A stretch of 58,590 nt of DNA from Gemmatimonadaceae bacterium. Its GTDB lineage: Bacteria; Gemmatimonadota; Gemmatimonadetes; Gemmatimonadales; Gemmatimonadaceae. Shown here piece by piece: positions 1,033 through 51,479 of this stretch. Location: positions 1-58,590 of the forward strand of contig DATBIU010000008.1 in the NCBI GenBank assembly GCA_036556765.1, given 5' to 3'. Numbering within the stretch: the stretch's first letter is position 1; each line of letters begins with the position of its first letter. The notes under the pieces are model-generated. The model had not been told where the DNA came from. It made no database searches and saw only the letters and a program-made list of their open reading frames with translations. The translations under genes were made by a program, and so were the position numbers.

Positions 1033-1556
1033 GGGTTGCTGCGCTCGCGGCACTCGCACTGATGCTCGTTGCGCCCCAGGCGCGCGCGCAGGACGGTGGC
1101 ATCGCGGTCGGCTCGATGGCGCCCAACGCGACGCTCGAGACGCTCGACGGCAAGCGCATCGAGCTCGGCTCGCTGATTGGCAAGACGCCGGTGGTGCTCG
1201 AGTTCTGGGCCACCTGGTGCAGCAACTGCGAGGAGCTCGAGCCCACCTTCCAGGCGGTGCAGAAGAAGTACGCGGGAAAGGTGCGATTCGCGAGCATCGC
1301 GGTCGCGATCAACCAGTCACCGGAACGCGTCCGCCGCTGGATCGCGCGCCATCAGCCGGGCCGCGACTTCTTCTACGATCACGCAGGCGATGCCGCCGAG
1401 GGGTACGATGCGCCCGCGACGTCGTACGTCGTGATCGTCGATGCGAGCGGTCGCGTCACGTATACCGGAGTCGGCGGCGAGCAGGATCTCGAGGGAGAGA
1501 TTCGGAAGGCGTTGGGAGGGTCAGGGGGCAAGGGCCAGGGGCCAGGGGGTGGGTGA
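1029..1556 (+). CDS. TlpA/ResA-like periplasmic thioredoxin
   Basis: Signal peptide MRVAALAALALMLVAPQARAQ and a WCSNC active site in the context VVLEFWATWCSNCE. It is translationally coupled to the CcdA-like gene. The C-terminal tail GGSGGKGQGPGGG is encoded by a GGGGCCA-type repeat. Confidence 0.85.
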   Translation: MRVAALAALALMLVAPQARAQDGGIAVGSMAPNATLETLDGKRIELGSLIGKTPVVLEFWATWCSNCEELEPTFQAVQKKYAGKVRFASIAVAINQSPERVRRWIARHQPGRDFFYDHAGDAAEGYDAPATSYVVIVDASGRVTYTGVGGEQDLEGEIRKALGGSGGKGQGPGGG

Positions 1557-1562
1557 AGGGTC
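1515..1562. repeat. Class-1 short tandem repeat, 7-nt GGGGCCA-like units, G-rich arm only
   Basis: The sequence ggagggtcagggggcaagggccaggggccagggggtgggtgaagggtc has 7-nt periodicity. It overlaps the 3' end of the thioredoxin CDS. Confidence 0.7.
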
Positions 1563-1579
1563 GGCGCTTTTCCAGCGCC
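1563..1579. terminator. Small GC hairpin between convergent genes
   Basis: ggcgct-tttcc-agcgcc forms a 6-bp stem. It lies between the stop at 1556 (+) and the stop at 1589 (-). Confidence 0.4.
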
Positions 1580-1588
1580 CTCGCTTCT

Positions 1589-2473
1589 TCACATCCCAAC
1601 CAGCCGCTCGCTCTCCTCCCAGAGTGCCGCCGCCAGCCGCGGATCGCGTGCGCGCCGGGGAAACGACGCTCGGCGCTCGCGAACGAAGTAGCGTCCCGTC
1701 ATCCCGTCGACGGATGGCGACGCCGCCAGTCTCACGATCGGCGAGGCGCCCTCCTCGAGCGTCCGGAGCGACCAGTCCCACGTCCTCCGCATCCAGCGCG
1801 GCCACTCACGCATGAGGTCGGTGGCCACCAGGCCCGGATGCACACAGTTCGCCGCGACGCCACTGCCCTCGAGTCGCCGTGCCAGCTCGATGGTGAACAG
1901 CATGTTCGCGAGCTTCGTGTCGCAGTACGCGCGCAATCCCGACGAGGCGCGCGCCGTGCCGACCTCGGCAGGCCTCACGCGCCCCAGCATTGCGAATCGC
2001 GACGTGACGGTGACGATCCGCGCATTGCCCGCCGCGCGCAGCTGCGGCAGCAGCTGATTCGTGAAGAGAAATGGGCCGAGGTGATTGACCGCCCACGTCA
2101 TCTCGAAGCCGTCGGCACTTTCCCGTCGCGACCGAAGGTGCACGCCGGCGTTGTTCACCAGCGCGTGCACGACGTCATGCTTCGACGCGATCTCGGCCGC
2201 CGCTGCCAGCACCGACGCCAGTGACGCGAGATCGATCGTGATGAACGACGCGTCGGCGCCCGGAGCGGCGGCCTCGCGTACGCGCTGGGCCGCCCGCTCG
2301 CCCCGCTGACGGTCGCGGCCGAGCATGAATACGTTCGCGCCCATCCCGGCCAGCGCGATGGAGGTCGCGAAACCCAGCCCGCGCGTCGCCCCCGTCACCA
2401 CGCACACCCGCCCGAGCAGGTCGGTGACTTCACGCCAGGACTGGCGCCGGTCTGTGGGCAGTAGAGTATTCAT
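1589..2473 (-). CDS. Short-chain dehydrogenase/reductase (SDR)
   Basis: Contains TGATRGLG (cofactor-binding motif), NNAG and YCDTK (YxxxK). The start is set at MNTLLPTD (ATG at 2471-2473). The upstream part of the 450-aa ORF is Arg/Asp-rich junk. Confidence 0.85.
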   Translation of the reverse strand: MNTLLPTDRRQSWREVTDLLGRVCVVTGATRGLGFATSIALAGMGANVFMLGRDRQRGERAAQRVREAAAPGADASFITIDLASLASVLAAAAEIASKHDVVHALVNNAGVHLRSRRESADGFEMTWAVNHLGPFLFTNQLLPQLRAAGNARIVTVTSRFAMLGRVRPAEVGTARASSGLRAYCDTKLANMLFTIELARRLEGSGVAANCVHPGLVATDLMREWPRWMRRTWDWSLRTLEEGASPIVRLAASPSVDGMTGRYFVRERRASFPRRARDPRLAAALWEESERLVGM

Positions 2474-2482
2474 CTCACCGAC

Positions 2483-3139: not shown

Positions 3140-3146
3140 ACAACAC

Positions 3147-3251
3147 CCAAAGACGTCAGGGATCGGACGGCAGATGCCAGGTGTCAGCGCTGGACCATCG
3201 TCGCGCGTATCTGACATCTGACACCTGACATCTGAGCCCTGACGTCTTCGG
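3147..3251. repeat. Class-6 tandem-repeat hairpin, 7-nt units (CAGATGT/CAGGTGT; GACATCT/GACACCT)
   Basis: Left arm is ccaaagacgtcagggatcggacggcagatgccaggtgtcag. Right arm is ctgacatctgacacctgacatctgagccctgacgtcttcgg. The outer 15 nt are complementary apart from one mismatch and include GACGTC. It fills the gap between the stop at 3139 and the start at 3273. Confidence 0.8.
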
Positions 3252-3272
3252 AAGTTCCCCTCGAGGAGACCT

Positions 3273-4952
3273 ATGCGGTTATCTGCTCTACTCGCCGCCC
3301 TGACCCTTCCCTGCGTGGTCGGAGCGCAGGAAGGGACGTGGGCGCTGACCAATGCCCGCATCGAGACGGTCGCCCGCGGCGTGATCGAGCGTGGCACGAT
3401 CGTGATTCGCGATGGGTTGATCGAAGCCGTCGGCCCCGATGTACGACCGCCGGCGGACGCGCGCATCGTCGATCTCGCCGGAAAGCACGTCTTCCCAGGG
3501 CTGATCGACCTCACCTCGACGCTCGGCCTCCCCAGCGCGCCGGCGGGAGGAGGACAGGGCGGCCAGCAGGGAGGCGCCGCGCAGGGGAGCGCCACGCCCG
3601 TGCGCAACGTGGGGCTCGAGCCCGGCCGCGTCATCGCCGACGAGCTCAGGCCCAGCGCATCGGACCTGCGGACCGCGCGTGATGTCGGCATCACGACCGT
3701 GCTCGTCGCGCCATCGCGCGGCGCCTTCCGCGGGCTCTCGGCCCTTGTGCCGCTGCGGGAGGAATCGGCGATTCGGTACATCGTGAAGTCCCCAGTCGCC
3801 TTGCACATGGGCTTCGAGGGCGCACAGGGGTCGGGCTTCGGCGGACGCTACCCGGCGACGCTGCTCGGCGTCATCGCGTACGAGCGGCAGTCGTTGTACG
3901 ACGCGCGCCACCACGCGGCGCTACAGGAGCGCCATCGAGCCGGAACCCGGGGGGCGGTGCGGCCATCGTACGATGCCGACCTCGATGCCCTGGTGCCGGT
4001 GGTGCGTGGTGCCGTTCCGGCGTTCTTCTCCGCCAATCGGGAGAACGAGATTCGCCGGGCGGTGCGCATCGGCGATGAGTTCGACCTGAAGCTCGTGGTC
4101 GTCGGGGCAACTGAGGGATTTCGCGCGATCGACGCGCTGAAGCGCGCCGAGGGCGTGGTGGTGTCGCTGGACTTTCCCCGCCCGACCGCGGTCACAGGGT
4201 GGTCGTATCGCTCCACGCAGCGGCATGCCCTCGACGACAGCGCCGCTACCGACAGCGCCGTGCGCCGGCTGCTCGAGTCGAATGCCGCGACGTTGCACGC
4301 CGCCGGCGTGCGATTCGCGCTCGCGTCAGGCGGCGCGCGGCCGGGTGAGTTTCTCGCCAACGTTCGCAAGGCGATCGCCGCCGGACTGCCGCGTGACGTC
4401 GCGCTCCAGGCGCTCACCGTGCGCGCCGCCGACGTCGCCGGTGTGGGGACGCAACTCGGCAGCATCGAGGCCGGCAAGATCGCGAACCTCGTGGTCGCCG
4501 AGCGCGATATCCTCGGTGACAGCGCGAACGTGCGGATGGTGTTCGTCGATGGCATTCGCCACGAAGTCATTGCCCCACCCGCGAGCGAGCGGCGGCGCGG
4601 GGGTGGCGCGGGCGCGCGCGGAGGCGAGCGCGAGGACGCGGGCGAAATGGCGCGCGTCGCCGGAACGTGGGACCTCACGGTGACATCGGCGCAAGGGGAC
4701 AACCAGGCAAGCATGACGGTCACGCAATCCGGCGCGACGCTCGACGGTACGATGGCGACCGAGCTGGGCACGGTGCAGGTGACGGATGGCCGCGTCACCG
4801 GGCAGCGGGTCACGTTCACGATCACGGTGCCCATCAGCGGTCAGACGACGGCGATCGTTTTTCGCGGAACGGTCGACGGGAACCGCATGACCGGGACCGC
4901 CGATCTCGGTGCGATGGGCAGCGCGACGTTTACGGGGGAGCGACGGCCTTGA
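3273..4952 (+). CDS. Amidohydrolase-family protein (paralog 1, no HxH) with a C-terminal beta-rich extension
   Basis: Has a signal peptide and the segment IVIRDGLIEAVGP...VFPGLIDLTSTLGL. The usual D-x-H-x-H position reads DLTST. Confidence 0.8.
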   Translation: MRLSALLAALTLPCVVGAQEGTWALTNARIETVARGVIERGTIVIRDGLIEAVGPDVRPPADARIVDLAGKHVFPGLIDLTSTLGLPSAPAGGGQGGQQGGAAQGSATPVRNVGLEPGRVIADELRPSASDLRTARDVGITTVLVAPSRGAFRGLSALVPLREESAIRYIVKSPVALHMGFEGAQGSGFGGRYPATLLGVIAYERQSLYDARHHAALQERHRAGTRGAVRPSYDADLDALVPVVRGAVPAFFSANRENEIRRAVRIGDEFDLKLVVVGATEGFRAIDALKRAEGVVVSLDFPRPTAVTGWSYRSTQRHALDDSAATDSAVRRLLESNAATLHAAGVRFALASGGARPGEFLANVRKAIAAGLPRDVALQALTVRAADVAGVGTQLGSIEAGKIANLVVAERDILGDSANVRMVFVDGIRHEVIAPPASERRRGGGAGARGGEREDAGEMARVAGTWDLTVTSAQGDNQASMTVTQSGATLDGTMATELGTVQVTDGRVTGQRVTFTITVPISGQTTAIVFRGTVDGNRMTGTADLGAMGSATFTGERRP

Positions 4953-4956
4953 AGAG

Positions 4957-4996
4957 CAGGGTCTGGGGTCAGGGGCCAGGGGCCAATCGGGGACCG
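4957..4996. repeat. Class-1 tandem repeat (GGGGCCA-like 7-mers), G-rich arm only
   Basis: The sequence cagggtctggggtcaggggccaggggccaatcggggacc lies between amidohydrolase genes 1 and 2. Confidence 0.65.
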
Positions 4997-5017
4997 TTCA
5001 AGGGAGAGACCGACGCA

Positions 5018-6412: not shown

Positions 6413-7740
6413 GGACGATGAGAAGCAGATTGCGGATTGCGGATTGCGGGTGGGTGGCTATCGCAGTCATCGCCACTGCAACGAGCGCACAGACTGCAAT
6501 CCGGAATCCGCAATCCGCAATCGTTATCAGAAACGCGACGATCGTCCCCGTCACCGGCGCCCGCATCCCGAACGGGACCATCGTGCTGCGTGCCGGCCGG
6601 ATCGAGGCGGTGGGCGCCGGCGTCACGGCACCAGCTGATGCGCAGGTGATCGACGGGACGGGACTGTTCGTGTATCCGGGAATGATCGACGGCGGGACGC
6701 AGCTCGGGCTCACCGAGATCGGGTCGGTGCCGGGCGGCGACGATACGCAGGAGATCGGCGACTTCAACCCGCACAACGTCGCGCTCACGGCGGTGAATCC
6801 GCATTCCGAGCTCATCCCCGTCACGCGCGTGAACGGTGTGACGACGGCGATCACCGCCGCGGAAGGAGGGCTGATCAGCGGGCAGGCCGGCCTCATCGAC
6901 CTCCTGGGGTGGACCCCGGCCGAGATGGCGGCGCGGCGCCAGGCGGCGATGGTGGTGAGCTACCCGTCGTTAGGTGGCGGCGGGTTCGGCGGCGGAGGGG
7001 GCCGCGGCCCCGAGCGGTCCGACGCCGAGCGGCGCGAAGAGCTGGACCGTCGCACTCGATCGCTGCGCAGCTATTTCGCCGATGCGAAGGCCTACGCCGA
7101 CATGAAGGGCCGCGTCGCGTCCGCCGGCGGCGTTCGCCGGGTGAATCAGGCGATGGAAGCCATGACGCCCATCATGCGTGGGGAGATGCCGGTGATCTTC
7201 GACGTGACCACCGTCGATCAGATCCGGGGTGTTCTCGCGCTGGCCGACACGTTCGGCATCAAGGTGATCCTGCGCGGGGCGCGCGAAGCCTGGCGCCTGG
7301 CGGATACCCTCGCGATGCGGAAGATCCCGGTGATCGTCGGACCGCTCACCAGCGCTCCCGGCGCCGAGGATCCGTACGACATGACGTACGCGAATCCCGG
7401 CGTGCTCGCGCGCGCGGGGGTGAAGATCGCGTTCCAGACATCGGACGCGGGGAACTCGCGCAACCTCCCCTACAACGCGGCGCTGGCGGTGGCGTATGGT
7501 CTCGACGCCGACGCGGCACTGCGTGCCCTGACCATCAATCCCGCCGAGATGTTCGGCGTCGGCGACCGGTATGGGAGTCTCGCGCCGGGCAAGGTGGCGA
7601 ACGTGGTCGTGACGACCGGCGACCCGATGGACGTTCGCAGCGTGGTGCGGCACCTCTTCATCCGCGGCCAGGCGATACCGCTGGACGATCGGCACACGAG
7701 GCTGTACGAGCAGTTCAGGGCGAGGCCGAAGACACAGTAA
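6409..7740 (+). CDS. Amidohydrolase-family protein (paralog 3, no HxH)
   Basis: ATGA overlap with paralog 2. Contains IVLRAGRIEAVG...VYPGMIDGGTQLGL. The N-terminal signal peptide is encoded by a class-2 repeat hairpin. Confidence 0.8.
   Translation: MRTMRSRLRIADCGWVAIAVIATATSAQTAIRNPQSAIVIRNATIVPVTGARIPNGTIVLRAGRIEAVGAGVTAPADAQVIDGTGLFVYPGMIDGGTQLGLTEIGSVPGGDDTQEIGDFNPHNVALTAVNPHSELIPVTRVNGVTTAITAAEGGLISGQAGLIDLLGWTPAEMAARRQAAMVVSYPSLGGGGFGGGGGRGPERSDAERREELDRRTRSLRSYFADAKAYADMKGRVASAGGVRRVNQAMEAMTPIMRGEMPVIFDVTTVDQIRGVLALADTFGIKVILRGAREAWRLADTLAMRKIPVIVGPLTSAPGAEDPYDMTYANPGVLARAGVKIAFQTSDAGNSRNLPYNAALAVAYGLDADAALRALTINPAEMFGVGDRYGSLAPGKVANVVVTTGDPMDVRSVVRHLFIRGQAIPLDDRHTRLYEQFRARPKTQ
6428..6523. 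repeat. Class-2 tandem-repeat hairpin (GATTGCG x3 / CGCAATC-like x4), inside a CDS
   Basis: The arm gattgcggattgcggattgcgg (6428-6449) faces ctgcaatccggaatccgcaatccgcaatcg (6494-6523). Confidence 0.85.
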
Positions 7741-7743
7741 ACC

Positions 7744-7912
7744 GGGATCAGGGGATCGGGGGATCGGGGGATCGGGGGATCGGGGGATCGGGGGATCGGG
7801 GGATCGGGGGATCAGGGGATCAGGGGATCAGGGGATCAGGGGATCAGGGGATCAGGGGATCGAGGGGTCGAGGGCGCCGAATCGGCCCTCGATCCCTTGA
7901 TCCCTCGATCCC
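7744..7912. repeat. Class-3 tandem-repeat hairpin, 8-nt units: about 16 G-rich units against about 3 C-rich units
   Basis: Units run GGGATCAG x1, GGGATCGG x7, GGGATCAG x6, then gatcgaggggtcgagggc. A short loop follows, then gccctcgatcccttgatccctcgatccc. The element fills the whole convergent gap between the stops at 7740 and 7916. Confidence 0.9.
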
Positions 7913-8385: not shown

Positions 8386-8498
8386 GAGGAATGAGGGCTG
8401 AGGAATGAGGGCTAAGGACTGAGGAGTGAGGAATTCGACTGAATGGGCCGCGTCGCCAAAACGTGCTCATCCCTCACTCCTCCGCCCTCATTCCTCAC
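8386..8498. repeat. Class-5 tandem-repeat hairpin, 7-nt units (GAGGAAT/GAGGGCT)
   Basis: Left arm is 7 units (8386-8434): gaggaat gagggct gaggaat gagggct aaggact gaggagt gaggaat. Right arm is ctcatccctcactcctccgccctcattcctcac (8466-8498). Confidence 0.85.
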
Positions 8499-9025
8499 TG
8501 TCTTCCCCCCGTAAGCCGCAGCTCCAGGACCCTCGTCGCAGGCAAAGGATCGATCGTTCTGTAGCACTGCAGCCGGTCGATGACCACCGGCTCATCGACA
8601 CGCACCGCGAGCAGCTCTCGGCGCTGGGTCGCATCGAGCGTGACGTAGAAGCTGAGCGTCGCGTGCGGGGTGAATGGAAATCGCGCCGGCTGGAACGGCA
8701 GGCCTGAGGTCGCAATGCGCTCGTGTAGCGTGCGCAGCGGACCGTGTGGATCGAGCGGCAGCACGATGATGTCGGTCTGCATGAACCGCATGGGCGCCCC
8801 GAGTCGCACGGTGATTGGCGCCGTGGTCGCGGCGATCGGAGCCAGCGCCTCCTCCATCTGCTCCACGGGTACGTTGAGCGGGATGGGACCCACACCAGAG
8901 GAGCCCGTAATCGTGACGTGCGGGACCGATGTGTTCGCGAGTCGCCGATCGATCTTCACCTGGGCCGCCCGCACGATTTCTCGCGCTGTCCCGCTGAGCT
9001 CGGAGATGAGGAAGAAGCCGTCCAC
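8495..9025 (-). CDS. 2H phosphoesterase superfamily protein (LigT / 2'-5' RNA ligase-like)
   Basis: Has the two HxT motifs, HVTI and HATL, at the expected spacing. GTG start at 9025. Confidence 0.75.
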   Translation of the reverse strand: MDGFFLISELSGTAREIVRAAQVKIDRRLANTSVPHVTITGSSGVGPIPLNVPVEQMEEALAPIAATTAPITVRLGAPMRFMQTDIIVLPLDPHGPLRTLHERIATSGLPFQPARFPFTPHATLSFYVTLDATQRRELLAVRVDEPVVIDRLQCYRTIDPLPATRVLELRLTGGRQ

Positions 9026-9046: not shown

Positions 9047-9152
9047 GGGGTCGAGGGGTCGAGGGGTCGGGGGATCGCGGGCCGCTCGAGCGGAACGGAC
9101 TCTGCGAATCCCTTGATCCCTTGATCCCTTGATCCCTCGATCCCCTGACCCC
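9047..9152. repeat. Class-3 tandem-repeat hairpin, 8-nt units, in a divergent intergenic region
   Basis: Left arm is ggggtcgaggggtcgaggggtcgggggatcgcggg. Right arm is gaatcccttgatcccttgatcccttgatccctcgatcccctgacc. Confidence 0.85.
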
Positions 9153-10133
9153 TTGGCTTCCTACGACCTCACCTCCTGCCCCGTCTGCGCCTCCACCGAC
9201 GCCGACGAAATCGCGACCGCGGACGACGCGCGCGCGGAAGTGGAGGCGTTGTGGGAATTCCACCAGCGGCGGCTCCGGCCCGGCACCCCACCGCGTGCCC
9301 TCGCCGACCGCGTCACCTTCTCGCAGGACCCACCCCTGCGCCTGGCGCAGTGCCGGCAATGCTCCCTCGTCTATCGCAATCCACGCGAGCGTGCGACCGA
9401 GCTCGTCGAGACGTACGCCGGCGAGATGCCCGACGACGCCACGCTTCGCACCCTGCACGAGAATCAACGCCGCGCCTATCGCGCACAGGTCCGGCGGCTC
9501 GAGCGCGCGCACGGCCGCCGAGGATCGGGCCTCGAGGTGGGGAGCTATGTCGGCGCATTCCTCGCCGCCGCGCGGGACGCCGGCTGGGAGTTCGAAGGGC
9601 TCGACGTCAACGAGCGCGCTGCCGCCTTCGCGTGCCGTATGGGCTTTCGTGTCACTGTTGGCGAGCTCGACGCCATGAAGGGCCGTCGCTTCGAGGTCGT
9701 CGCCATCTGGAATACCTTCGAGCAGCTGCCCGATCCGCGCGCCGCGGCGGTAGGTGCGCGAAGCCTGCTGCAGCAGGGCGGAACGCTGGCCATCCGCGTC
9801 CCGAACGGTCAGGCGTACGCCACCCTTCGCCGCACGCGTCGCCCTCTGCTCGCGCAGCTCGCGCGGGGTGTAATGGCGCACGACAATCTGCTCGCGTTTC
9901 CCTACCGCCACGGGTTTACGACCGGGTCGCTCACCCGTCTTCTTAGTGATGCCGGCTTCGGGGATCTTCGGTTCTTTGGCGACGCTCTAGTGCCGATTGG
10001 CGACCGCTGGACGCGCCGCTGGGCGCGGCTGGAAGAGCAGGTGGTCAAGGCGCTGTTGCGGGGCGCCGCGAGAAGCAGCAGGTTAGGACGGCGATACTCG
10101 CCCTGGCTCGAAGCTTACGCGCGTGCACGATGA
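9129..10133 (+). CDS. Class I SAM-dependent methyltransferase with an N-terminal Cys4 zinc ribbon
   Basis: CPVC...CRQC zinc ribbon followed by GLEVGSYVGAFLAAARDAGWEFEGLDVN and FEVVAIWNTFEQLPDP. The listed TTG start lies inside the repeat, and a TTG at 9153 is an alternative. Confidence 0.75.
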   Translation: MIPRSPDPLASYDLTSCPVCASTDADEIATADDARAEVEALWEFHQRRLRPGTPPRALADRVTFSQDPPLRLAQCRQCSLVYRNPRERATELVETYAGEMPDDATLRTLHENQRRAYRAQVRRLERAHGRRGSGLEVGSYVGAFLAAARDAGWEFEGLDVNERAAAFACRMGFRVTVGELDAMKGRRFEVVAIWNTFEQLPDPRAAAVGARSLLQQGGTLAIRVPNGQAYATLRRTRRPLLAQLARGVMAHDNLLAFPYRHGFTTGSLTRLLSDAGFGDLRFFGDALVPIGDRWTRRWARLEEQVVKALLRGAARSSRLGRRYSPWLEAYARAR

Positions 10134-13319: not shown

Positions 13320-13320
13320 A

Positions 13321-13460
13321 GGGCCAAGTGCCAGGGGCCAGGGGCCAAGGGGGCTGAGGAATGCGGCGCGGCTTTGCCGCTGCCGCTCATCAGATGAGCG
13401 AGCGGCCTTCGGCCGCTCGCCTTTCCATCCCCCTGGCCCTTGGCCCTTGGCCCAGGGCCC
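13321..13460. repeat. Class-1 tandem-repeat hairpin (GGGGCCA-like 7-mers) with a long structured loop
   Basis: The arm gggccaagtgccaggggccaggggccaaggggg (13321-13353) faces cccccctggcccttggcccttggcccagggccc (13429-13460). Confidence 0.85.
13398..13420. terminator. Perfect GC hairpin nested in the loop of the class-1 element
   Basis: gcgagcggcc-ttc-ggccgctcgc gives a 9-10 bp stem. Confidence 0.5.
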
Positions 13461-13468
13461 GGCGCGCG

Positions 13469-13510
13469 GCCATTGATCGCGCGGCGCTAGCGCCGCCGCG
13501 CGATCAATGG
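13469..13510. terminator. 16-bp perfect palindrome overlapping the 3' end of the PAP2 gene
   Basis: ccattgatcgcgcggc, then a 10-nt loop containing GCTAGC, then gccgcgcgatcaatgg. Confidence 0.5.
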
Positions 13511-14321: not shown

Positions 14322-14375
14322 GTTTGCGGATTGCGGATGGCGGGCAACGTGCTGCGTCATCGCAATCCGCATTCC
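14322..14375. repeat. Class-2 tandem-repeat hairpin (GATTGCG type) in a divergent intergenic region
   Basis: gtttgcggattgcggatggcgg faces catcgcaatccgcattcc. Confidence 0.75.
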
Positions 14376-16437: not shown

Positions 16438-17373
16438 ATGCTGAGCATCGATCTCGCGGGACGTCGCGCGCTCGTGGCCGGCGTCGCCGACGACCGGGGA
16501 TACGGATTCGCGATCGCGAAGGCGTTGGCGGAGGCGGGCGCGTCGATCGTTCTCGCGACGTGGCCGCCCGCGCTCAACATCTTCCTGAATCTGCTGGAAC
16601 GCGGGAAGATCGACGAGGCGCGCGCGCTCTCCGATGGACGACGGCTCGAGTTCGAGAAGATCTATCCCCTCGATGCCGCCTTCACGACACTGAGCGAGGC
16701 GACACCCGACGTCCTCGACAACAAGCGCTACCGCGAGGTGGGCGACTTCTCGATCGAGGGGCTCGCGCAGCGGCTCACCGCGGACTTCGGGGAGCGGCCG
16801 ATCGACATCGTCATCCACTCGCTCGCGAATGGTCCCGAGGTCAAGAAGCCGCTCATGGACACGAGCCGTGGCGGCTACCTCACCGCGATGGGGGTGAGCG
16901 CCTACTCGATGGTCGCGATGGTGGGACGCCTCGCGCCCCTCATGCGCGATGGTGGCGCATTTCTGTCGCTGACCTACATGGCCAGCGAGCGCGTCATTCC
17001 GGGGTACGGTGGCGGCATGAGCTCGGCGAAAGCCGCACTCGAAAGCGATACCCGGGTGCTCGCCTACGAGGCGGGACGCAAGTTCGGCACACGCGTGAAC
17101 TGCATCTCCGCCGGCCCGCTCGCGTCACGCGCCGCCAGCGCCATCGGCATCATCGAGGCGATGGTCGACTACTGCTCGGCCAACTCACCCCTCACGGAAC
17201 CGCTGTCCCCCACCGAGGTCGCGAACACCGCCGCCTTTCTCTGCAGCCCTCTCGCGAGCGGCATCACCGGCACCGTGGTCTACGTGGACAAGGGATATCA
17301 CTCGATGGGCATGGCGGTGGAGCAGGGTCAGGGGCCAGGGGCCAAGGGCCGGCCCTTGGCCCTTGACCCTTGA
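16438..17373 (+). CDS. fabI: Enoyl-[acyl-carrier-protein] reductase (NADH), FabI type
   Basis: Contains ALVAGVADDRGYGFAIAKALAEAGA and YGGGMSSAKAALE (Y-x6-K). The C-terminal tail EQGQGPGAKGRPLALDP is encoded by the class-1 repeat. Confidence 0.85.
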   Translation: MLSIDLAGRRALVAGVADDRGYGFAIAKALAEAGASIVLATWPPALNIFLNLLERGKIDEARALSDGRRLEFEKIYPLDAAFTTLSEATPDVLDNKRYREVGDFSIEGLAQRLTADFGERPIDIVIHSLANGPEVKKPLMDTSRGGYLTAMGVSAYSMVAMVGRLAPLMRDGGAFLSLTYMASERVIPGYGGGMSSAKAALESDTRVLAYEAGRKFGTRVNCISAGPLASRAASAIGIIEAMVDYCSANSPLTEPLSPTEVANTAAFLCSPLASGITGTVVYVDKGYHSMGMAVEQGQGPGAKGRPLALDP

Positions 17374-17378
17374 CCCTG
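17323..17378. repeat. Class-1 tandem-repeat hairpin, near loop-less palindrome
   Basis: cagggtcaggggccaggggccaagggcc is directly followed by ggcccttggcccttgacccttgaccctg. It spans the fabI stop (17373) and abuts the convergent stop at 17383. Confidence 0.9.
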
Positions 17379-17382
17379 CCTC

Positions 17383-19525: not shown

Positions 19526-19526
19526 A

Positions 19527-19634
19527 GGGGCTCAAGGTGCTCGAGGTAGTCGAGGTGCTCAAGGTGCTCGACGTGCTCGAGGGAAAGCACCCGCACCCTC
19601 GAGTACCTCGAGCACCCTGAGCACCTCGAGCACC
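19527..19634. repeat. Class-4 tandem-repeat hairpin, 9-nt units (GGTGCTCGA / TCGAGCACC)
   Basis: Left arm is ggggctcaaggtgctcgaggtagtcgaggtgctcaaggtgctcgacgtgctcgaggg. Right arm is ccctcgagtacctcgagcaccctgagcacctcgagcacc. Confidence 0.9.
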
Positions 19635-19636
19635 TT

Positions 19637-20302: not shown

Positions 20303-20337
20303 TCCTCAGTCCTCAGCACTCATTCCTCGTTCGTCGT
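20303..20337. repeat. Class-5-like tandem repeat, C-rich arm only
   Basis: Units tcctcag tcctcag cactcat tcctcgt tcgtcgt lie in the divergent region 20222-20411. Confidence 0.55.
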
Positions 20338-23848: not shown

Positions 23849-23894
23849 GTGCTCAGGGTGCTCAGGGTGCTCAGGGTGCTCAGGGTGCTCAGGG
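23849..23894. repeat. Class-4-like 9-nt array (GTGCTCAGG x5), G-rich arm
   Basis: Five near-perfect units start directly after the stop at 23848. They are inverted relative to the array at 24226-24298. Confidence 0.9.
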
Positions 23895-23980
23895 GCTAAC
23901 CCAGTCGCGTTACGCGCCGTAAGATTTTGGTTCTTCGGGGAATGCGGGATTGCCTGACGTCAGCTGCGGTCCGCAAGCGG

Positions 23981-24179
23981 CCACGAACAGCTGAACTGCT
24001 AAACGGCCCCGAATGACAACACGAATTACGCGAATGGCGTCCGTGCGCGTCGAACTCGGCTCTCCAGGAACCACCACTGTGTCGTTGGGCTCGCGCGGGG
24101 GCGGTTGCACCGCGCCGAGAGCGATTCGGGCAATTCGTGTTTGTCATTCGGGTGATTTGGCAGTTCGGCTGTCCGTGGC
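23981..24179. other. Rod-like imperfect inverted repeat of about 47 bp per arm; candidate MITE or structured sRNA
   Basis: The arm gccacgaacagctgaactgctaaacggccccgaatgacaacacgaatt (23981-24027) faces aattcgtgtttgtcattcgggtgatttggcagttcggctgtccgtggc (24132-24179). Inner pairing continues with cgaactcggc / gccgag..ttcg. Local GC is lower than the surroundings. Confidence 0.6.
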
Positions 24180-24225
24180 CCGACACCGCGATCTTTCCCG
24201 GGAATCCCCGATGAGCCAGAATGTT

Positions 24226-24298
24226 TCGAGCACCTCGAGCACTTCGAGCACTTCGAGCACCTCGAGCACCCCGAGCACCCCGAGCACCCCGAGCACCC
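24226..24298. repeat. Class-4 9-nt array (CGAGCACYY x8), C-rich arm
   Basis: The sequence tcgagcacctcgagcacttcgagcacttcgagcacctcgagcaccccgagcaccccgagcaccccgagcaccc ends 15 nt upstream of the start at 24314. Confidence 0.9.
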
Positions 24299-24313
24299 TA
24301 ACCAGAGGCCGCA

Positions 24314-26723: not shown

Positions 26724-26812
26724 GGTGGGCGAGGTCGTCGAAGTGATCGAGGTGGTCGAGGCGCATCCCCTCGAGCACCTCGAGCACCTTGACTCCCTCG
26801 AGCACCTCGACG
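26724..26812. repeat. Class-4 tandem-repeat hairpin, 9-nt units
   Basis: ggtgggcgaggtcgtcgaagtgatcgaggtggtcgaggc faces cccctcgagcacctcgagcaccttgactccctcgagcacctcgacg. It lies between co-directional genes and ends 2 nt before the ATG at 26814. Confidence 0.85.
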
Positions 26813-28579: not shown

Positions 28580-28657
28580 TGCGGACTGCGGACCGCGGAC
28601 TGCGGATTGCGGGCCGCACTCCCCAGAGGCAATCCGCGCTCCGCAATCCGCAATCGG
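28578..28657. repeat. Class-2 tandem-repeat hairpin (GCGGAYT / CGCAATC 7-mers)
   Basis: gatgcggactgcggaccgcggactgcggattgcggg faces gcaatccgcgctccgcaatccgcaatcgg. The right arm ends 8 nt before the TetR ATG. Confidence 0.85.
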
Positions 28658-29294: not shown

Positions 29295-30455
29295 TCAGTA
29301 GCCGAGCAGCTTCCGGATTCGCTCGAGCCGTTCCGGCGACGCCGGCCCCGTGAGCGCAAAGTCGGTTCCGGCCGCGTCCGTCCATCGGATCGTCGTGTAC
29401 GTCGCAACGCTATCCGCCCGCGCCGGAGCCTGGGCTCGCTCCCGTTCCGCGCGCTCCACGGGCACAGGCGCGCGCTCGTCCAACGTCACGAGCAGGTCGT
29501 CCACCCGGTAGATCCGCCGCCGAACCTCGCGTCCATCTTCGGTCATCATCTCTTCCTGCACCAGGCGCGGCCCGGCCCCGAGCGCCGCCATCGGCGCGGG
29601 CGCGGCTGCACCCGCCGCGCCACCGACGGCCGGCGCCGCGGGACGTGGCTCCGCGAACTTGGCCTGTGCCTCCGCGCTCCGCCGTCGTGTCAGGGCTCCT
29701 ACCGCCTTCTCGGCGATCGATGACGACGCGTCTTCCTCGCGCCCCTGACGCGTCTCCGCCGGTCGCGCGTCGGCGACGCGCAGCGACCGAAGCGAGTCGT
29801 CGGTGCGCGCCAGCGGGGCCGCCGCGGCGTTGGCCGTCACGGTCGGCTCGGTCTGCTGCACGATTGCGGGTGGTGGCGCCGAGTCCTTCGTCTCTCGCGT
29901 GGCCACGAGATCGCGCGCTGGAGCCGGGGAGGGCGACATCGCTCTCGGTCTCACGGCGCGCACGACGGGTGCTTCGCTCGGCAGCTCTTCCGCCACGACC
30001 CCCTGCGGTGACGGAGAATCCGCCGCCGCTATCTCCATCGTGCGCACCGGCTCCGAGGCCAGATCCTGCTGCACTGCCGGAGGGGTATTGCGCGCGATCA
30101 CCAGCGAGAGCGCCCCACCGGCGACCACCAGCGTGAGCACGGCCGCGATCCGTTCCCGAACGAGCCACGTCGCGGGAGCCCAGCGTCTAGCGCCCTCAGC
30201 CCCCCTAGCGCCCCTAGCGCCCCTAACGCCCCTAGCGCCCTTAGCGCCCTTAGCGCCCTTAGCGCCCTCGACGTTCGCCACCCCATCGAGCGCCGTCAGA
30301 ATCCGCGTCGACGCGGCGATGAGCCCGCGCGCCTCGGCCACCGCATCGGCGCACGCGGAGCACGATGCAACGTGCGCCTCGGCGCGGGCGGCCTCCTCGG
30401 TGCTGAGCGCCCCGTCCAGCCAGGCGTGAATGGTCCCTTCGTCAAGATGCTGCAT
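29295..30455 (-). CDS. Anti-sigma factor (zf-HC2 type) with one TM helix and an Ala/Pro-rich outer region
   Basis: Begins MQHLDEGTIHAWLDGAL...HVASCSACADAV. GAGGAA lies 5 nt upstream of the ATG at 30455. It overlaps the sigma gene stop. Confidence 0.8.
   Translation of the reverse strand: MQHLDEGTIHAWLDGALSTEEAARAEAHVASCSACADAVAEARGLIAASTRILTALDGVANVEGAKGAKGAKGARGVRGARGARGAEGARRWAPATWLVRERIAAVLTLVVAGGALSLVIARNTPPAVQQDLASEPVRTMEIAAADSPSPQGVVAEELPSEAPVVRAVRPRAMSPSPAPARDLVATRETKDSAPPPAIVQQTEPTVTANAAAAPLARTDDSLRSLRVADARPAETRQGREEDASSSIAEKAVGALTRRRSAEAQAKFAEPRPAAPAVGGAAGAAAPAPMAALGAGPRLVQEEMMTEDGREVRRRIYRVDDLLVTLDERAPVPVERAERERAQAPARADSVATYTTIRWTDAAGTDFALTGPASPERLERIRKLLGY
30188..30268. repeat. 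Class-7 in-frame 9-nt array (TAGCGCCCY x9) inside the anti-sigma CDS
   Basis: Read on the minus strand it gives EGAKGAKGAKGARGVRGARGARGAEGAR. It sits between the zf-HC2 domain and the TM helix. Confidence 0.9.
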
Positions 30456-38189: not shown

Positions 38190-38291
38190 CCCAGGGCCCA
38201 GGGCCAGGCGCCACGGGCCAGGGGTTGGGTCAAGGGTCTACTGGAGCCCTTGGCCCGACCCCGTGGCCCTTGGCCTCTGACCCTCGGCCCC
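38190..38291. repeat. Class-1 tandem-repeat hairpin (GGGCCAR 7-mers) between convergent genes
   Basis: cccagggcccagggccaggcgccacgggccaggggttgggtcaagggtc faces agcccttggcccgaccccgtggcccttggcctctgaccctcggcccc. Confidence 0.85.
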
Positions 38292-41440: not shown

Positions 41441-41516
41441 GAGTCGCGGATGGCCGTCCGCCGTCCGCCGCCCGCAGTCCGAAATCCGCAATCCGCAATC
41501 CGCAATCCGCAATCGG
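41441..41516. repeat. Class-2 7-nt array (GTCCGCC to ATCCGCA, about 8-9 units) with only a one-unit G-rich partner
   Basis: gagtcgcggatgg is followed by gtccgcc gtccgcc gcccgca gtccgaa atccgca x4 atcgg. The array ends 5 nt before the ppc ATG. Confidence 0.8.
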
Positions 41517-45008: not shown

Positions 45009-45010
45009 CG

Positions 45011-46874: not shown

Positions 46875-46878
46875 AACG

Positions 46879-46969
46879 CGGTGCTCGAGGTGCTCGAGGT
46901 GCTCGAGGTGCTCGAGGTGCTCGAGGGGTTTCCCTTGAGCACCTCGAGCACATCGAGCACCTTGAGCAC
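46879..46969. repeat. Class-4 tandem-repeat hairpin, 9-nt units (GGTGCTCGA x5 / TYGAGCACM x4)
   Basis: cggtgctcgaggtgctcgaggtgctcgaggtgctcgaggtgctcgagggg faces cccttgagcacctcgagcacatcgagcaccttgagcac. It ends 2 nt before the ATG at 46972. Confidence 0.9.
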
Positions 46970-46971
46970 GT

Positions 46972-48684: not shown

Positions 48685-48685
48685 G

Positions 48686-49030: not shown

Positions 49031-49047
49031 TGATGCTCCTTGTGGGT

Positions 49048-50430
49048 TCAGGCTCTAGACGGTCGGGCTTCCCGGTTTTCGACAGGCCCCTCCCAACCGG
49101 ACTCACACTCGCGGATGCGGCGTTCCAGGAATCGGCGGACGGGGGCCGACCCCGCTCGTTCGGCGGCGTGTGCGAAGTGGATACCGGCCTCCCGGTGGCG
49201 CCCAAGCCGACGAAGCATTTCGCCGATGGCGGCTTCGTAGGGCGGGTAGCGCCTGAGAACGCTTTGGCCGCTGAGTGCGCTCAGATCTCTCAATCCAGCC
49301 TCTGGACCAGACACTTCCGCGACAGCTATAGCTCTGTTGAGCGCCACTACTGGCGATTCCATGGACGCAAGCATCGCGTCGTACAGCTCGACGATCCGCG
49401 CCCAGTTCGTCGCCTCCCAGCTGGGAGCCAGGGTGTGACAGGCCGCCAGCTCCGCCTCGAGGTGGTACCGCGTCACGACATCCCCGGTCGCGGCCCGCTC
49501 GAGGTGGTGCACCCCTGCTGCCATGTGCGCCCGATCCCACCGCGACCGGTCCTGGTCGGCCAGCAGCAGGAGCTCGCCCTCCGAATCCACCCGCGCCGCA
49601 AAGCGAGCCGCGTGCAGGTGGAAGAGCGCCATCAGCGCGTGGACGGCCGGCCGGGCGAGCGCCGGATGGCGAAGCAGCAGCGCGCCGAGTCGCATTGCCT
49701 CCTCACAGATGTCACGACGCACCAGCTCGTCGCCCGCGTGGGCCGTGTGCCCTTCGGTGAACATCGCGTACAGCACGTCGAGCACCGAGTCGAGACGCTC
49801 TGAAATCTCGGCGCCCTCGGGCATCTCGAACGCCAGCCCCGCTTCGCGGATCCTGCGCTTCGCCCGCACCAGCCGCTGGTGTATCGCCGCCTCCTCGGCC
49901 ACGAACGCCCGAGCAATCTCCGACGCGCCGAAGCCGCCGGCCAGCTTGAGCGTGAGCGTGACACGGGAGTCGGCCGGGATTGCCGGATGGCAGCAGATGA
50001 GGATCATGCGAAGCTGATCGTCGACGATCAGGGCATCGTCGGCGACGAGGGTGGTGTCACCTTCCCCCCACTGCGCGATCGCCTCACGAACGCGGCCTTC
50101 GCGGTCCTCGAGAAGGCGCTCCCGTCGCAGGACATCGAGCGCGCGATGCTTCGCCACCTGCACGAGCCAGGCGGTCGGATTGGCGGGGATGCCGTCGCGC
50201 GGCCACCGCCCGAGCGCGGCCAGCAGCGCTTCCTGCACGACGTCCTCGATCAGCTCAATGCGTCCCGGCCCGAGGATGCGCGCTAGCGTCGCCGTCATTC
50301 GGGCGGCTTCGTGCCGAAAGAGGTGATCGACGAGGGCAGGAACCGACACGGGCGTCGCGGTGCTCGGGCGTTGCGGTGCGGACGACGATCGGACGGGGAC
50401 GATGATCGTTATGCCGGACCTCGTCAACAT
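49048..50430 (-). CDS. ECF sigma factor with a long C-terminal TPR-like extension (the type paired with YciI)
   Basis: Contains IEDVVQEALLAALGRWPRDGIPANPTAWLVQVAKHRALDVLRRE. The real start may be the GTG at 50349. Confidence 0.8.
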   Translation of the reverse strand: MLTRSGITIIVPVRSSSAPQRPSTATPVSVPALVDHLFRHEAARMTATLARILGPGRIELIEDVVQEALLAALGRWPRDGIPANPTAWLVQVAKHRALDVLRRERLLEDREGRVREAIAQWGEGDTTLVADDALIVDDQLRMILICCHPAIPADSRVTLTLKLAGGFGASEIARAFVAEEAAIHQRLVRAKRRIREAGLAFEMPEGAEISERLDSVLDVLYAMFTEGHTAHAGDELVRRDICEEAMRLGALLLRHPALARPAVHALMALFHLHAARFAARVDSEGELLLLADQDRSRWDRAHMAAGVHHLERAATGDVVTRYHLEAELAACHTLAPSWEATNWARIVELYDAMLASMESPVVALNRAIAVAEVSGPEAGLRDLSALSGQSVLRRYPPYEAAIGEMLRRLGRHREAGIHFAHAAERAGSAPVRRFLERRIRECESGWEGPVENREARPSRA

Positions 50431-50560
50431 GTTTGCGCAATGTTCACATCGGGATGTCGCGAGTCACGTTGACATTCGCTGCGCGCCCCACACATTGGCC
50501 ATCCGGACTCTCTCTCCGTTCTTGCCACCGTCCTTCCTCCCAGCCGCGCGCATCGTGCGC

Positions 50561-51397
50561 ATGGGGCCGATCCTCATCGGCCTCGCCGCGTGCGCGCAGG
50601 CTGCGTCGACCGCGGCCACCGTGCCGATTGCCTTCGGCCGGTGGCGGCCGCCGCAGGGCCAGGCCTGCTACTCCGACGACTTTCAGCCGCGCGAGCTGCC
50701 CGCCCTGTCGGCGATGCTCGACTCGGCCGCGGTTGCGGCGGTGCTGCGCGCTCGGCCAGAAGGCAGCGTCCTCATTGCCCTCTCGTTCAATGCGTTCGGA
50801 CACACCGAGCGCGCCCGCGTGATCGACCGACGCATGCCGGTGAGCACGGCCGATTCGATTCGGCGGATCATCGAGGCGCATCTGCGCGTGCCGCGCAGCG
50901 ACGAGGGCTGGGGCGCGCGTCTGCATGCGTCGACCGGCGAGTCGGCATCGCTCGCGCTCGGGCGAAGGGAAGTGTGCCCGCCCGTGCTCGCGCGCATCGA
51001 GCCGCTCGGCTTCGCCAACGTCGCCACGATCGATGAGCGGGAGCCCGAAGCTTTTCCCGCGCCCGATTGGATCGTTCGCGGCGTTCCCGCGCCCGCCGGC
51101 ACGCCGCGCTCGACCGTCGAGCGCGTGGTCGCCGGCGTCCCGGTGCGCGACACCACGCGCCTAACGGTCGACTCCGCGGCCATCGCGCCCGACCTCACCG
51201 CCATCGGCGACGAGGTGTTGACGCTGCGCGTGCTGATCGACACCACCGGCGCCATCGCGCACGCCGAGATCTCGCGCGTGGCGGCGATCGGCGTCGATCG
51301 CGCGCGCCTGGTCGCGGAGCTGGCGCGCTACCGCTTTCACCCGGCCCTCGAGGATCGCGTTCCCACGCCGTCGTGGGTGATTCTCAGAATCAAATGA
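50561..51397 (+). CDS. Hypothetical secreted protein with two TonB-C-like modules
   Basis: Signal peptide MGPILIGLAACAQAAS. The C-terminus LRVLIDTTGAIAHAEI...FHPAL resembles a TonB C-terminal fold. This call is tentative. Confidence 0.5.
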   Translation: MGPILIGLAACAQAASTAATVPIAFGRWRPPQGQACYSDDFQPRELPALSAMLDSAAVAAVLRARPEGSVLIALSFNAFGHTERARVIDRRMPVSTADSIRRIIEAHLRVPRSDEGWGARLHASTGESASLALGRREVCPPVLARIEPLGFANVATIDEREPEAFPAPDWIVRGVPAPAGTPRSTVERVVAGVPVRDTTRLTVDSAAIAPDLTAIGDEVLTLRVLIDTTGAIAHAEISRVAAIGVDRARLVAELARYRFHPALEDRVPTPSWVILRIK

Positions 51398-51461
51398 GGA
51401 ACGAGGCCTGAGGAGTGAGGAAACCCATGGTTGGATTCCCTCACTCCTCAGTCCTCATCCC

Positions 51462-51479
<18 letters not shown>
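51383..51479. repeat. Class-5 tandem-repeat hairpin that overlaps both convergent stop codons
   Basis: ctcagaatcaaatgaggaacgaggcctgaggagtgaggaa faces ttccctcactcctcagtcctcatccctcatttgactcttctgag. Confidence 0.9.

Follow-up and report, generated by a model that had tools for sequence, protein, structure and literature searches.

Hairpin repeats with tandem-unit arms at gene boundaries in Gemmatimonadota and Acidobacteriota, most likely counterparts of the heptamer arrays of Xanthomonas and cyanobacteria

Tandem heptamer arrays beside open reading frame (ORF) ends, familiar for decades from cyanobacteria and since 2015 also from Xanthomonas, still lack an explained function. The cyanobacterial short tandemly repeated repetitive (STRR) heptamers, the subject of work by Mazel et al. 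in 1990, reportedly comprise several unit types per genome and are said to be intergenic, dispersed, tandem and transcribed. Xanthomonas genomes hold ~185 GGGAATC arrays each, with a strong non-coding bias, and 70-75 of the arrays stand in inverted pairs that are "always" convergent and have stem-loop potential (Rehm et al. 2015, PMC4692102). These repeats lie ≤50 bp from ORF ends, with the G-rich strand in sense orientation after a stop codon and antisense before a start codon; their position and type are conserved between species while their length varies, and no link to insertion sequences was found (PMC4692102). The GGGGA(C/T)T heptamers of Nostoc form "only a few paired repeats" (PMC4692102). 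For the TAACTGA heptamer of marine Beggiatoaceae, the abstract of PMC4679880 gives 169 sets with one indirect repeat. In repetitive extragenic palindromic (REP) sequences the unit is an imperfect palindrome of 20-40 nt that bears a conserved, unpaired GTAG or CGTC tetranucleotide tag at one end (Di Nocera 2013, PMC3733652). Here we describe hairpin repeats whose arms are tandem arrays of short units, in a 58,590-bp contig of 68% G+C (DATBIU010000008.1, referred to below as the window) which derives from a metagenome assembly and belongs to a Gemmatimonadaceae metagenome-assembled genome (MAG); the closest named relatives of its phosphoenolpyruvate (PEP) carboxylase gene (41522-44287) are likewise Gemmatimonadaceae MAGs.

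The window carries 20 such elements covering 2,083 nt. Fifteen are palindromic, with a G-rich array followed by a loop and the complementary C-rich array, and five are single arrays without a clear complementary arm (1518-1548, 4959-4985, 20303-20328, 30188-30268 and 41453-41514). An original prediction, made from the sequence, had proposed one architecture at about 20 loci; the shared design is borne out by the census and by folding, and the claim that every locus is a palindrome holds for the 15 paired elements and fails for the five single arrays. Tandem Repeats Finder (TRF) returned period-7, -8 and -9 arrays of 2.3-15.4 units at essentially every coordinate that had been predicted, and the raw sequence confirms the units named for those loci. 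When each array was matched to a downstream array with the reverse-complement unit, 12 true pairs were found with loops of up to 450 nt (two additional 6-mer "pairs" were spurious), and 11 pairs with loops of ≤150 nt, as against none in each of 40 dinucleotide-preserving shuffles. Three more, imperfect palindromes (3142-3256, 14322-14372 and 51383-51473) were recovered by an inverted-repeat search and folding. The predicted stems are 25-45 bp long, with ΔG values of -34 to -110 kcal/mol in 15 ordinary elements and about -263 kcal/mol in the nested element E13; in six representative elements z ranges from -5.5 to -12.6, and none of 200 shuffles folds equally well. Element lengths range from 50 to 450 nt and differ between orthologues, and, the contig being metagenomic, the number of units given for the 124-nt array at 7744 may be inexact. 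Tandem-unit hairpin repeats are thus confirmed as real, non-random and widespread. A CRISPR-like reading was rejected, the units being contiguous and without spacers. A search of Rfam, which the original prediction had named as a route to an already characterised family, gave no match at gathering score over the whole window and none at E≤1 for 23800-24350.

Several unit classes exist, but the independence of the six or seven classes originally proposed was overstated: class 1 (GGGGCCA), class 3 (the 8-mers) and class 6 (CAGATGT) appear to be drifted forms of a single RRRRYCA-type family, and the class 7 repeat is coding. Tracts of three or four G residues are confined to classes 1 and 3 (GGGGCCA, GGGGATCR, GGGGTCGA), and the classes GATTGCG, GGTGCTCGA, GAGGAAT and AGGGCGCTA are without G-tracts.

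The positions of the elements were read against a gene map built with a codon-usage model trained on the window and checked by Pfam and by the lengths of database orthologues. Coding sequence makes up 89.5% of the window and spacers 10.5%, yet 18 of the 20 elements fall within or span intergenic spacers, in agreement with the predicted gene-boundary location; the exceptions are 6428-6522, in a signal-peptide coding region, and 30188-30268, a coding linker. Convergent junctions hold the elements at 7744, 13320, 17323, 38190 and 51383 together with the single array at 1518, divergent junctions those at 3142, 9047, 14322, 20303 and 41453, and co-directional junctions those at 4959, 8386, 19526, 23849, 26724, 28580 and 46880. 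Twenty gene 3' ends have an element between -51 and +40 nt of the stop codon, 15 of them at -15 to +9 nt, and in nine genes an element ends ≤30 nt before the start codon. Stop-to-start gaps are filled completely at 19526-19636, 26724-26810 and 46880-46969, and three genes, those for redoxin and a short-chain dehydrogenase/reductase (SDR) and the one that ends at 51397, run on into an element and have their stop codons inside it. A Shine-Dalgarno-like motif precedes one of the nine genes with an element ≤30 nt upstream and 18 of 41 others (Fisher p = 0.13), a comparison that rests on approximate start codons and is to be read as a trend only. The genes flanking the elements share no common function.

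All 15 paired elements of the window have the G-arm first. Polarity was also scored in the PEP carboxylase and amidohydrolase neighbourhoods of relatives, loci that were not chosen for their repeats, and with these included G-first exceeds C-first by 43 to 6 among 49 scorable pairs (p = 6e-8), with 32 of 38 outside the window. Because the G-first and C-first orders are each strand-symmetric, this bias is meaningful. It agrees with a strand rule by which the sense strand carries the G-rich array past a stop codon and the C-rich array ahead of a start codon; convergent, divergent and co-directional junctions all obey it, so a G-first palindrome suits both neighbours at every kind of junction. 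The elements are as follows.

E1, 1518..1548, plus strand: single G-rich array, GGGCCAG x4.4, with no tandem C-arm (TRF, sequence); it opens with AGGGTCAGGGG, as do other class-1 copies, and forms the C-terminal tail of the redoxin gene (stop codon 1554-1556), whose Pfam domain stops at residue 141 of 164.
E2, 3142..3256: palindrome between divergent genes, with right arm ATCTGAC x3.9 and a degenerate left arm, ΔG -60/-70; a member of the AAAGACGTCAG-ended family.
E3, 4959..4985, plus strand: single array GGGTCTG GGGTCAG GGGCCAG GGGCCA, beginning 6 nt past the stop codon at 4952.
E4, 6428..6522: GATTGCG x3, loop, CGCAATC x3.9, in the signal-peptide coding region of an amidohydrolase gene that starts at the ATG at 6409, in an overlapping ATGA.
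E5, 7744..7912: (GGGGATCR)x15.4, loop, (CCCTYGAT)x3.4, filling the gap between convergent genes.
E6, 8386..8499: GAGGAAT/GAGGGCT x6.7, loop, CCTCACT-type x4, between co-directional genes on the minus strand.
E7, 9047..9155: GGGGTCGA x4.4, loop, ATCCCTTG x6, between divergent genes.
E8, 13320..13460: GGGGCCA-type x4.6, a 78-nt centre that contains three small hairpins, CCCTTGG x3.4, between convergent genes; ΔG -110, z -8.3.
E9, 14322..14372: short palindrome of TTGCGGA x2.9, loop, CGCAATCCGCATTCC, between divergent genes.
E10, 17323..17379: near-perfect palindrome with 29-nt arms (GGGTCAG GGGCCAG GGGCCAA GGGCC, then the complement), covering the last 17 codons of the SDR gene and its stop codon.
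E11, 19526..19636: GGTGCTCGA-type x6.3, loop, CCTCGAGCA x4.3, filling the whole 111-nt gap between two genes on the minus strand.
E12, 20303..20328, minus strand: single array, TCCTCAG x3.7 as read on the plus strand, in a divergent spacer.
E13, 23849..24297: GTGCTCAGG x5.1 (23849-23894) and TCGAGCACC x8 (24226-24297), filling a stop-to-start gap.
E14, 26724..26810: GGTGGTCGA-type x4.2, 7-nt loop, CCTCGAGCA x4.7, filling a stop-to-start gap.
E15, 28580..28655: TGCGGAC x4.7, loop, GCAATCC x3.9, beginning at a stop codon and ending 9 nt before the TetR gene start at 28665.
E16, 30188..30268, minus strand: in-frame 9-mer array, AGGGCGCTA x9 on the minus strand, not palindromic; it encodes GAKGAKGAKGARGVRGARGARGAEGA, a (GAK/GAR)9, or (Gly-Ala-Lys/Arg)9, linker of a zf-HC2 anti-sigma factor.
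E17, 38190..38290: GGGCCCA/GGGCCAG x5, loop, CCCTTGG x4.4, downstream of the isocitrate lyase gene.
E18, 41453..41514, minus strand: C-rich arrays GCCGTCC x4 and CCGCAAT x6 with a G-arm that is only vestigial, ending 7 nt before the PEP carboxylase start codon.
E19, 46880..46969: (GGTGCTCGA)x5.2, perfect, 6-nt loop, CCTCGAGCA x4.1, ΔG -80, z -12.6, running from 5 nt past a stop codon to 2 nt before a start codon.
E20, 51383..51473: palindrome with 42-nt arms of GAGGAAC/GAGGCCT/GAGGAGT units, overlapping both stop codons of convergent genes.

The two loci originally given at 23849 and 24226 belong to one element, E13, whose arms enclose a 331-nt, AT-richer insert (23895-24225). This insert has a 60-nt inverted repeat of its own (23979-24038 and 24121-24180, 73% complementary), has no other copy in any compared locus and no Rfam match, and is possibly a small palindromic mobile element of another kind, lodged in the loop. 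Adjoining E8, a GC-rich, near-perfect, non-tandem palindrome (GGCGCGCGGCCATTGATCGCGCGGCGCTAGCGCCGCCGCGCGATCAATGGGCGCGCGACC, 13461-13520) overlaps the 3' end of a PAP2 gene. The small Gly/Arg/Ser-rich ORF that ends at 38189 starts at an ATG after GGAGGAGGTC, ~90 nt downstream of a sigma-54-type promoter motif, TGGCAC-N5-TTGC (37753-37767), which lies in non-coding sequence and is the sole match in the window, with 0.11 expected by chance. The related loci L001 and L002 have the motif in near-identical form (CTGGCACATGCGTTGCC / CTGGCACACGCGTTGCC), and the length of the ORF is highly variable among relatives through 15-, 48- and 12-nt indels.

Comparison with relatives shows that the same junction keeps an element, and that the changes consist of whole units, of arm loss, or of overwriting by another family. 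The loci L198 (Gemmatimonadaceae OF_bin.40) and L199, relatives at 93-98% nucleotide identity, carry the same elements at the same junctions. The length variability that had been predicted is seen as a 28-nt (4-unit) indel in E18, at 41462, against L198/L199 and a 7-nt indel in E19, at 46877, between close relatives; across 16 kb of L198 and L199, all indels of ≥3 nt fall inside elements, save one codon. A 55-nt deletion has removed the centre and right arm of E17 in L199, and in the E19 of the same locus a complete 150-nt palindrome of another family supplants the G-arm, while the old C-arm stays, a replacement seen relative to a 97-98% identical relative. In L198, unit TGTGCTCGA pairs with TCGAGCACA, one of several instances in which the arms stay complementary as units change.

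At ~82-84% nucleotide identity (L164, L118 and L120), E6 and E7 are kept in L164 with different unit numbers, the E6 orthologue being shorter. In L164 the E7 left arm begins with four units (32 nt) that match those of the window exactly, and 35 of 36 aligned arm positions agree, in surroundings where coding sequence is ~82% identical. The E5 orthologues of these relatives have arms of the 7-mer GGRGTCA as against the 8-mer GGGGATCR of the window. The L164 arms are complementary at 42 of 42 positions though their unit order differs from that of L118. The orthologues of E4 in L118 and L119 keep both the encoded peptide (MRTMRSRLRIADCGWVAIAVIATATSAQT...) and the heptamer periodicity, and L119 shows a compensatory GACTGCG/CGCAGTC change within this coding sequence. 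The identity of arm to arm as against that of orthologues was dropped as a measure of concerted evolution, since periodic sequences align too easily.

At L001 and L002, where PEP carboxylase identity to the window is 83-87%, the same junctions show the same architecture with unrelated units (CTGCGCG, CCGCAGAAGG, CACAGAGG, AGGGCGCTG), and some junctions are empty or hold only a plain palindrome. At one site with an array in L002, a single unit in L001 is a possible seed; L002 and L003 are 99.98% identical and align without gaps, which makes this pair uninformative on strain polymorphism. The unit of the coding array E16 makes an intergenic palindrome in L002. Amidohydrolase orthologues were compared at ~60 metagenome loci, and at ~16 of these a tandem-armed palindrome starts 0-20 nt past the stop codon of the orthologue, with at least eight unrelated units overall. 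L125, L129 and L143 share a conserved central hairpin with variable tandem arms, and at 11 loci of GC 0.70 an ordinary hairpin, GGGGCCGG, with a T-rich tail stands downstream of the orthologue. In the metagenome loci L149-L163 (GC ~0.70), a plain hairpin (GGGGCCGGAGC...GCCGGCCCC) with a T-rich tail is conserved at this site and is followed by a conserved AAACCCCGGCGCGTTTCTTGCAAT motif. In the window itself two amidohydrolase genes (5018-6412 and 6409-7740) are joined by an ATGA stop/start overlap (6409-6412) and a third lies upstream (3315-4952); the three-gene arrangement is kept in L120, and an amidohydrolase series also occurs in the Terriglobia locus L201. In the Terriglobia locus L185, compared with its relative L201, a C-arm before a start codon is kept, with three units against eight, and the G-arm is supplanted by a different complete palindrome beside the upstream stop codon. 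Orphan C-arms left by such replacement would account for single arrays such as E18.

The families are also dispersed. The new arm in L199 is 92% identical over 40 nt to the L119 element downstream of the amidohydrolase gene and 85% identical over 47 nt to an element of L075; these three copies and E2 have 26 invariant alignment columns in common, and the L199 element resembles E2 in its outer end, GAACGGCAAAGACGTCAG, and in the order of its unit variants. Class-1 copies likewise share an outer GAGCAGGGTC and the same ordered unit series, and E6 and E20 both have CTGAGGAGTGAGGAA beside the loop. The same order of unit variants at unrelated junctions indicates that each class is a dispersed family and not a locally arisen unit. 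The architecture is found in other Gemmatimonadaceae and in Acidobacteriota (Vicinamibacterales and Terriglobia), carriers including GCA_025931335.1 (OF_bin.40) and the Gemmatimonadaceae and Acidobacteriota MAGs CAWBOC01, CAWJYM01 and CAVYTI01; L185 alone has nine heptamer-armed palindromes in 21 kb, with the units ATTGACG, AGTCGAA and AAATTCG. A scan of a 185,579-species genome collection for three GTGCTCNRG units gave at least 114 stretches; among the matches listed, at least four Gemmatimonadaceae MAGs, along with Acidobacteriota (Vicinamibacterales and others), have palindromic pairs of this 9-mer, which in Actinomycetota and some Acidobacteriota proteins serves as a coding (Gly-Ala-Gln)n repeat. 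GGTGCTCAR and GGCGCTAAG units both read Gly-Ala-X in frame, as in the Acidobacteriota (GAQ)n repeats (loci L015, L043, L050 and L093), and the units of Gly-Ala-X coding repeats form intergenic palindromes elsewhere. A very large GTGCT-type element was observed in L028 (Acidobacteriota MFD05537) at 5178-5630, with left-arm arrays of ~8 and ~17 units (CGGTGCTAA, GGTGCTCAA) and a right arm of ~24 units (TTAGCACCG), so that arrays can grow far beyond the sizes in the window.

Pfam searches of the window detected no transposase, reverse transcriptase, nuclease or RAYT-like/Y1_Tnp gene. The RAYT-like gene (REP-associated tyrosine transposase) that had been suggested for a search was sought further with E. 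coli RayT, which found no homologue by tblastn in 1.8 Mb of compared loci, a sample far too small to exclude a RAYT. The Terriglobia contig L201, related to L185, encodes a 235-aa Y1_Tnp protein (PF01797, RAYT/IS200-like, with the motifs NHVHWVL and RYTELNPV) at 570-1277 on the minus strand, and a 53-residue paralogue fragment of it lies at L201 21136-21294. The Y1_Tnp gene has a plain hairpin, GGAGCCTGTCGG...CCGACAGGCTCC, on one side and is not flanked by tandem-armed elements; the census found no tandem-armed palindrome pairs in L201, and tblastn with the L201 protein over the same 1.8 Mb returned only the source gene and the 53-residue partial match. Inspection of element ends revealed no consistent GTAG/CGTC end tag: GTAG occurs at E6 and E19 only, where it overlaps a stop codon, and CGTC in the AAAGACGTCAG family lies inside a paired unit. 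The palindromic unit, tag, fixed length and target-site duplication by which REP, bacterial interspersed mosaic elements (BIME) or Correia and enterobacterial repetitive intergenic consensus (ERIC) elements would be recognised are thus all lacking here.

We tentatively read the elements as related families of short interspersed hairpin repeats, prone to slippage, that act as transcript-end or intercistronic hairpins, a reading to which we would give a probability of roughly 0.45. Replication slippage would expand and contract the arrays. Intrastrand template switching in quasipalindromes is an established mutational route, and such quasipalindrome correction, selection for pairing, or both would keep the arms complementary. 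A copy process would move family members to new junctions, with a preference for the neighbourhood of stop codons and for an existing G-arm. In transcripts the elements would form 3'-end or intercistronic hairpins serving as terminators, exonuclease barriers or possible RNase III sites, and might substitute for hairpin-plus-U terminators; a consensus scan of positions 1-40 kb flagged no element and counted no more terminator-like sites than in shuffles. A transcript hairpin is favoured because the elements start at stop codons, because the first 40 kb lack hairpin-plus-U terminators above chance, and because relatives have an ordinary terminator hairpin at the same site. As a speculation on the polarity, a G-arm that emerges first would sequester the C-arm at once and leave no C-rich Rho landing site.

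Several observations weigh against this reading. No element has a U-tract, and five elements occupy divergent spacers, in which no terminator would be expected; together these weaken a pure-terminator reading. When both strands were folded in a test of G·U against A·C pairs, the stabler strand did not follow gene direction. Stems of 30-45 bp that end 2-9 nt before start codons should hinder translation initiation. The left arm of E19 in the window has been homogenised to five perfect units, with loss of a compensated pair, and E5 has arms of 15 and 3 units, i.e., array dynamics can override pairing. As regards copying, there is no target-site duplication at the L198/L199 or L185/L201 replacement sites, element length is not fixed, and neither a copy mechanism nor an enzyme was found in the window or the compared loci. 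The transcript function itself is one that we infer from sequence.

The main rival, which we consider unlikely, is that the elements are purely selfish, non-autonomous repeats akin to MITEs (miniature inverted-repeat transposable elements) or to REPINs, the REP doublets that form hairpins; they would be moved by a transposase encoded elsewhere (e.g., of the Y1/HUH type) and survive where harmless, with the tandem units a by-product of slippage. It draws on the way in which one family, its unit variants in a constant order and its outer ends (GAACGGCAAAGACGTCAG) conserved, recurs at unrelated junctions in different genomes, on the ready-made 150-nt palindrome that supplants an older G-arm in L199 and the like event in L185 versus L201, on the nested insert of E13, and on the presence of one 9-mer class in two phyla and of a Y1_Tnp gene in L201. 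That gene, however, stands beside a different, non-tandem hairpin on a contig without tandem-armed pairs; the window has no transposase, and no homologue of RayT or of the L201 Y1 protein was found in the 1.8 Mb beyond L201. Target-site duplications, a fixed length and a conserved GTAG/CGTC end tag are absent as well, and the strict gene-relative polarity and the persistence of a hairpin at one site across deep divergence suggest host constraint. A neutral origin, in which slippage and quasipalindrome template switching inflate a small terminator hairpin or seed into the spacer with neither function nor mobility, would fit spacers filled exactly to stop and start codons, the fast turnover of units with many unrelated ones at the same site, the unbalanced arms of E5 (15 versus 3 units), the conserved central hairpin with variable arms in L125, L129 and L143, and the possible single-unit seed in L001 where L002 has an array. 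It is nevertheless improbable, as independent slippage cannot yield one and the same order of unit variants at loci that are unrelated and in other genomes, and it does not account for why a few classes recur within 58 kb, why the G-arm comes first, or how a ready-made palindrome comes to take the place of an arm. We hold it similarly improbable that dedicated machinery writes and rewrites the arrays beside stop and start codons, the G-first hairpins being a general system that marks transcript ends and couples or insulates cistrons. The machinery might consist of a hairpin-specific nuclease, of the HUH type or another, coupled to unit-by-unit synthesis on a template, or of a copier that resembles a retro-element; Gemmatimonadota, Acidobacteriota, Xanthomonas and cyanobacteria would have it in common, and its hairpins would take the place of U-tract terminators and, in some genes, of Shine-Dalgarno sites.

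Arrays of binding sites for sequence-specific DNA- or RNA-binding proteins, with each class a regulon and convergent arms suited to dimeric or cooperative binding, would explain why a few discrete classes recur at many junctions and are common to several species and phyla, why arrays stand beside start codons and in divergent promoter regions, and why L164 matches the E7 left arm exactly over its first 32 nt in a setting of ~82% coding identity. The neighbouring genes, on the other hand, have no common function, a class can be swapped at one junction with no change of gene order, and no candidate binding protein was found, all of which makes this explanation very doubtful. Still less probable is an action at the DNA level on replication or transcription through non-B structures (G-quadruplex (G4), i-motif or cruciform), a role that has been put forward for the Xanthomonas repeats. 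Classes 1 and 3 do have at least four tracts of three or four G residues, and Xanthomonas-type oligonucleotides form G4 in vitro (Rehm et al. 2015, PMC4692102), but the GATTGCG, GGTGCTCGA and GAGGAAT classes have the same architecture, position and polarity without G-runs, as do the Terriglobia units ATTGACG, AGTCGAA and AAATTCG. G4 formation as the unifying property was rejected for this lack of G-runs in several classes; cruciform extrusion may occur. An artefact of assembly or amplification might be suspected in a metagenome contig, as short-read assembly can mis-size long arrays, and the original prediction had raised this concern. Orthologous elements at the same junctions in independent JGI, ENA and NCBI assemblies effectively refute it, exact copy numbers excepted.

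These data suggest that the design is much wider than was thought, extending to two more phyla of abundant soil bacteria and to units of 7-10 nt. The capacity for G4 appears dispensable, and the features that are kept are arm complementarity, G-first polarity and position at stop and start codons. Structural variation between strains of 97-98% identity comes mainly from the elements, and the ready-made palindromes that supplant older arms hint at an unrecognised copy process. In practical terms, the elements are likely hot spots for mis-assembly and for wrong stop or start calls in MAGs. It can now be tested whether the hairpins define transcript ends where canonical terminators seem to be lacking, and which enzyme, if any, spreads them.

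Among described systems, intrinsic terminators resemble the elements in being GC-rich hairpins directly past a stop codon, and GC-richer relatives have a T-tailed hairpin at that place. The elements differ in having no U-tract, in stems that are 3-5 times longer, and in lying also upstream of start codons and between divergent genes. MITE-like repeats such as Correia or Neisseria miniature insertion sequences (NEMIS), ERIC and the Rickettsia palindromic elements (RPE) are likewise dispersed hairpins of ~60-170 nt at gene boundaries; RPE may lie within coding sequence in frame, like E4 and E16, and the outer ends of one of the present families are conserved. MITEs are marked by a fixed length, by arms of unique sequence and by target-site duplications, none of which is seen in these elements. 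The likeness to REP, BIME and REPIN sequences lies in short, multi-copy extragenic palindromes after stop codons, between convergent or co-directional genes, in messenger RNA hairpins that can stabilise upstream transcripts, and in several families per genome, with inverted pairs that form long hairpins and rapid turnover between species. In contrast to REPs, however, the units here are non-palindromic 7-9-mers in tandem, so that only the whole element is palindromic, there is no consistent tag, and no RAYT was found in the window or in 1.8 Mb; REPs are also rare in divergent promoter regions. The TAACTGA repeats of marine Beggiatoaceae (PMC4679880) are abundant intergenic heptamer arrays with a proposed post-transcriptional role; they differ from the elements in being almost exclusively direct arrays of an AT-rich unit with no palindromic design.

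Closest of all are the tandem heptamers with which we began. The original prediction held that no described family has microsatellite stems, a claim contradicted by Rehm et al. (2015, PMC4692102), who describe one; since both polarity and ORF-end proximity match that account, the claim of no precedent fails. As in Xanthomonas, arrays of short units stand head to tail (7 nt and 2 to ~26 copies in the known case) with a non-coding excess, lie close to ORF ends under the same strand rule (polarity 43 to 6), form always-convergent inverted pairs (15 of 20 elements paired, all G-first), and keep junction and type in relatives while unit number differs. Against this, the elements do not fit a GGGNATC-type unit with G4-capable G-tracts, most families here being unable to form G4; several unit families with units of 7, 8, 9 and 10 nt share one genome; paired hairpin copies predominate (15/20); divergent junctions are not avoided (5/20); the hosts are Gemmatimonadota and Acidobacteriota; and there is evidence for dispersal and family replacement, which is not reported for Xanthomonas. 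The arrays of Nostoc differ in being mostly unpaired (PMC4692102), and the genomes with STRR heptamers are AT-richer. We know of no 8-10-nt units among cyanobacterial STRR sequences, which are nevertheless said to provide a precedent for several unit classes in one genome, another point that had been thought novel. No description of such elements in Gemmatimonadota or Acidobacteriota was found in full-text searches of the literature, and what is new is the many families per genome, the 8-10-nt units, the classes incapable of G4, the predominance of hairpins, the use of divergent junctions and the occurrence in two phyla, together with the evidence for dispersal and for replacement. The elements are most likely the Gemmatimonadota and Acidobacteriota counterpart of the Xanthomonas GGGAATC repeats and the cyanobacterial heptamer repeats.

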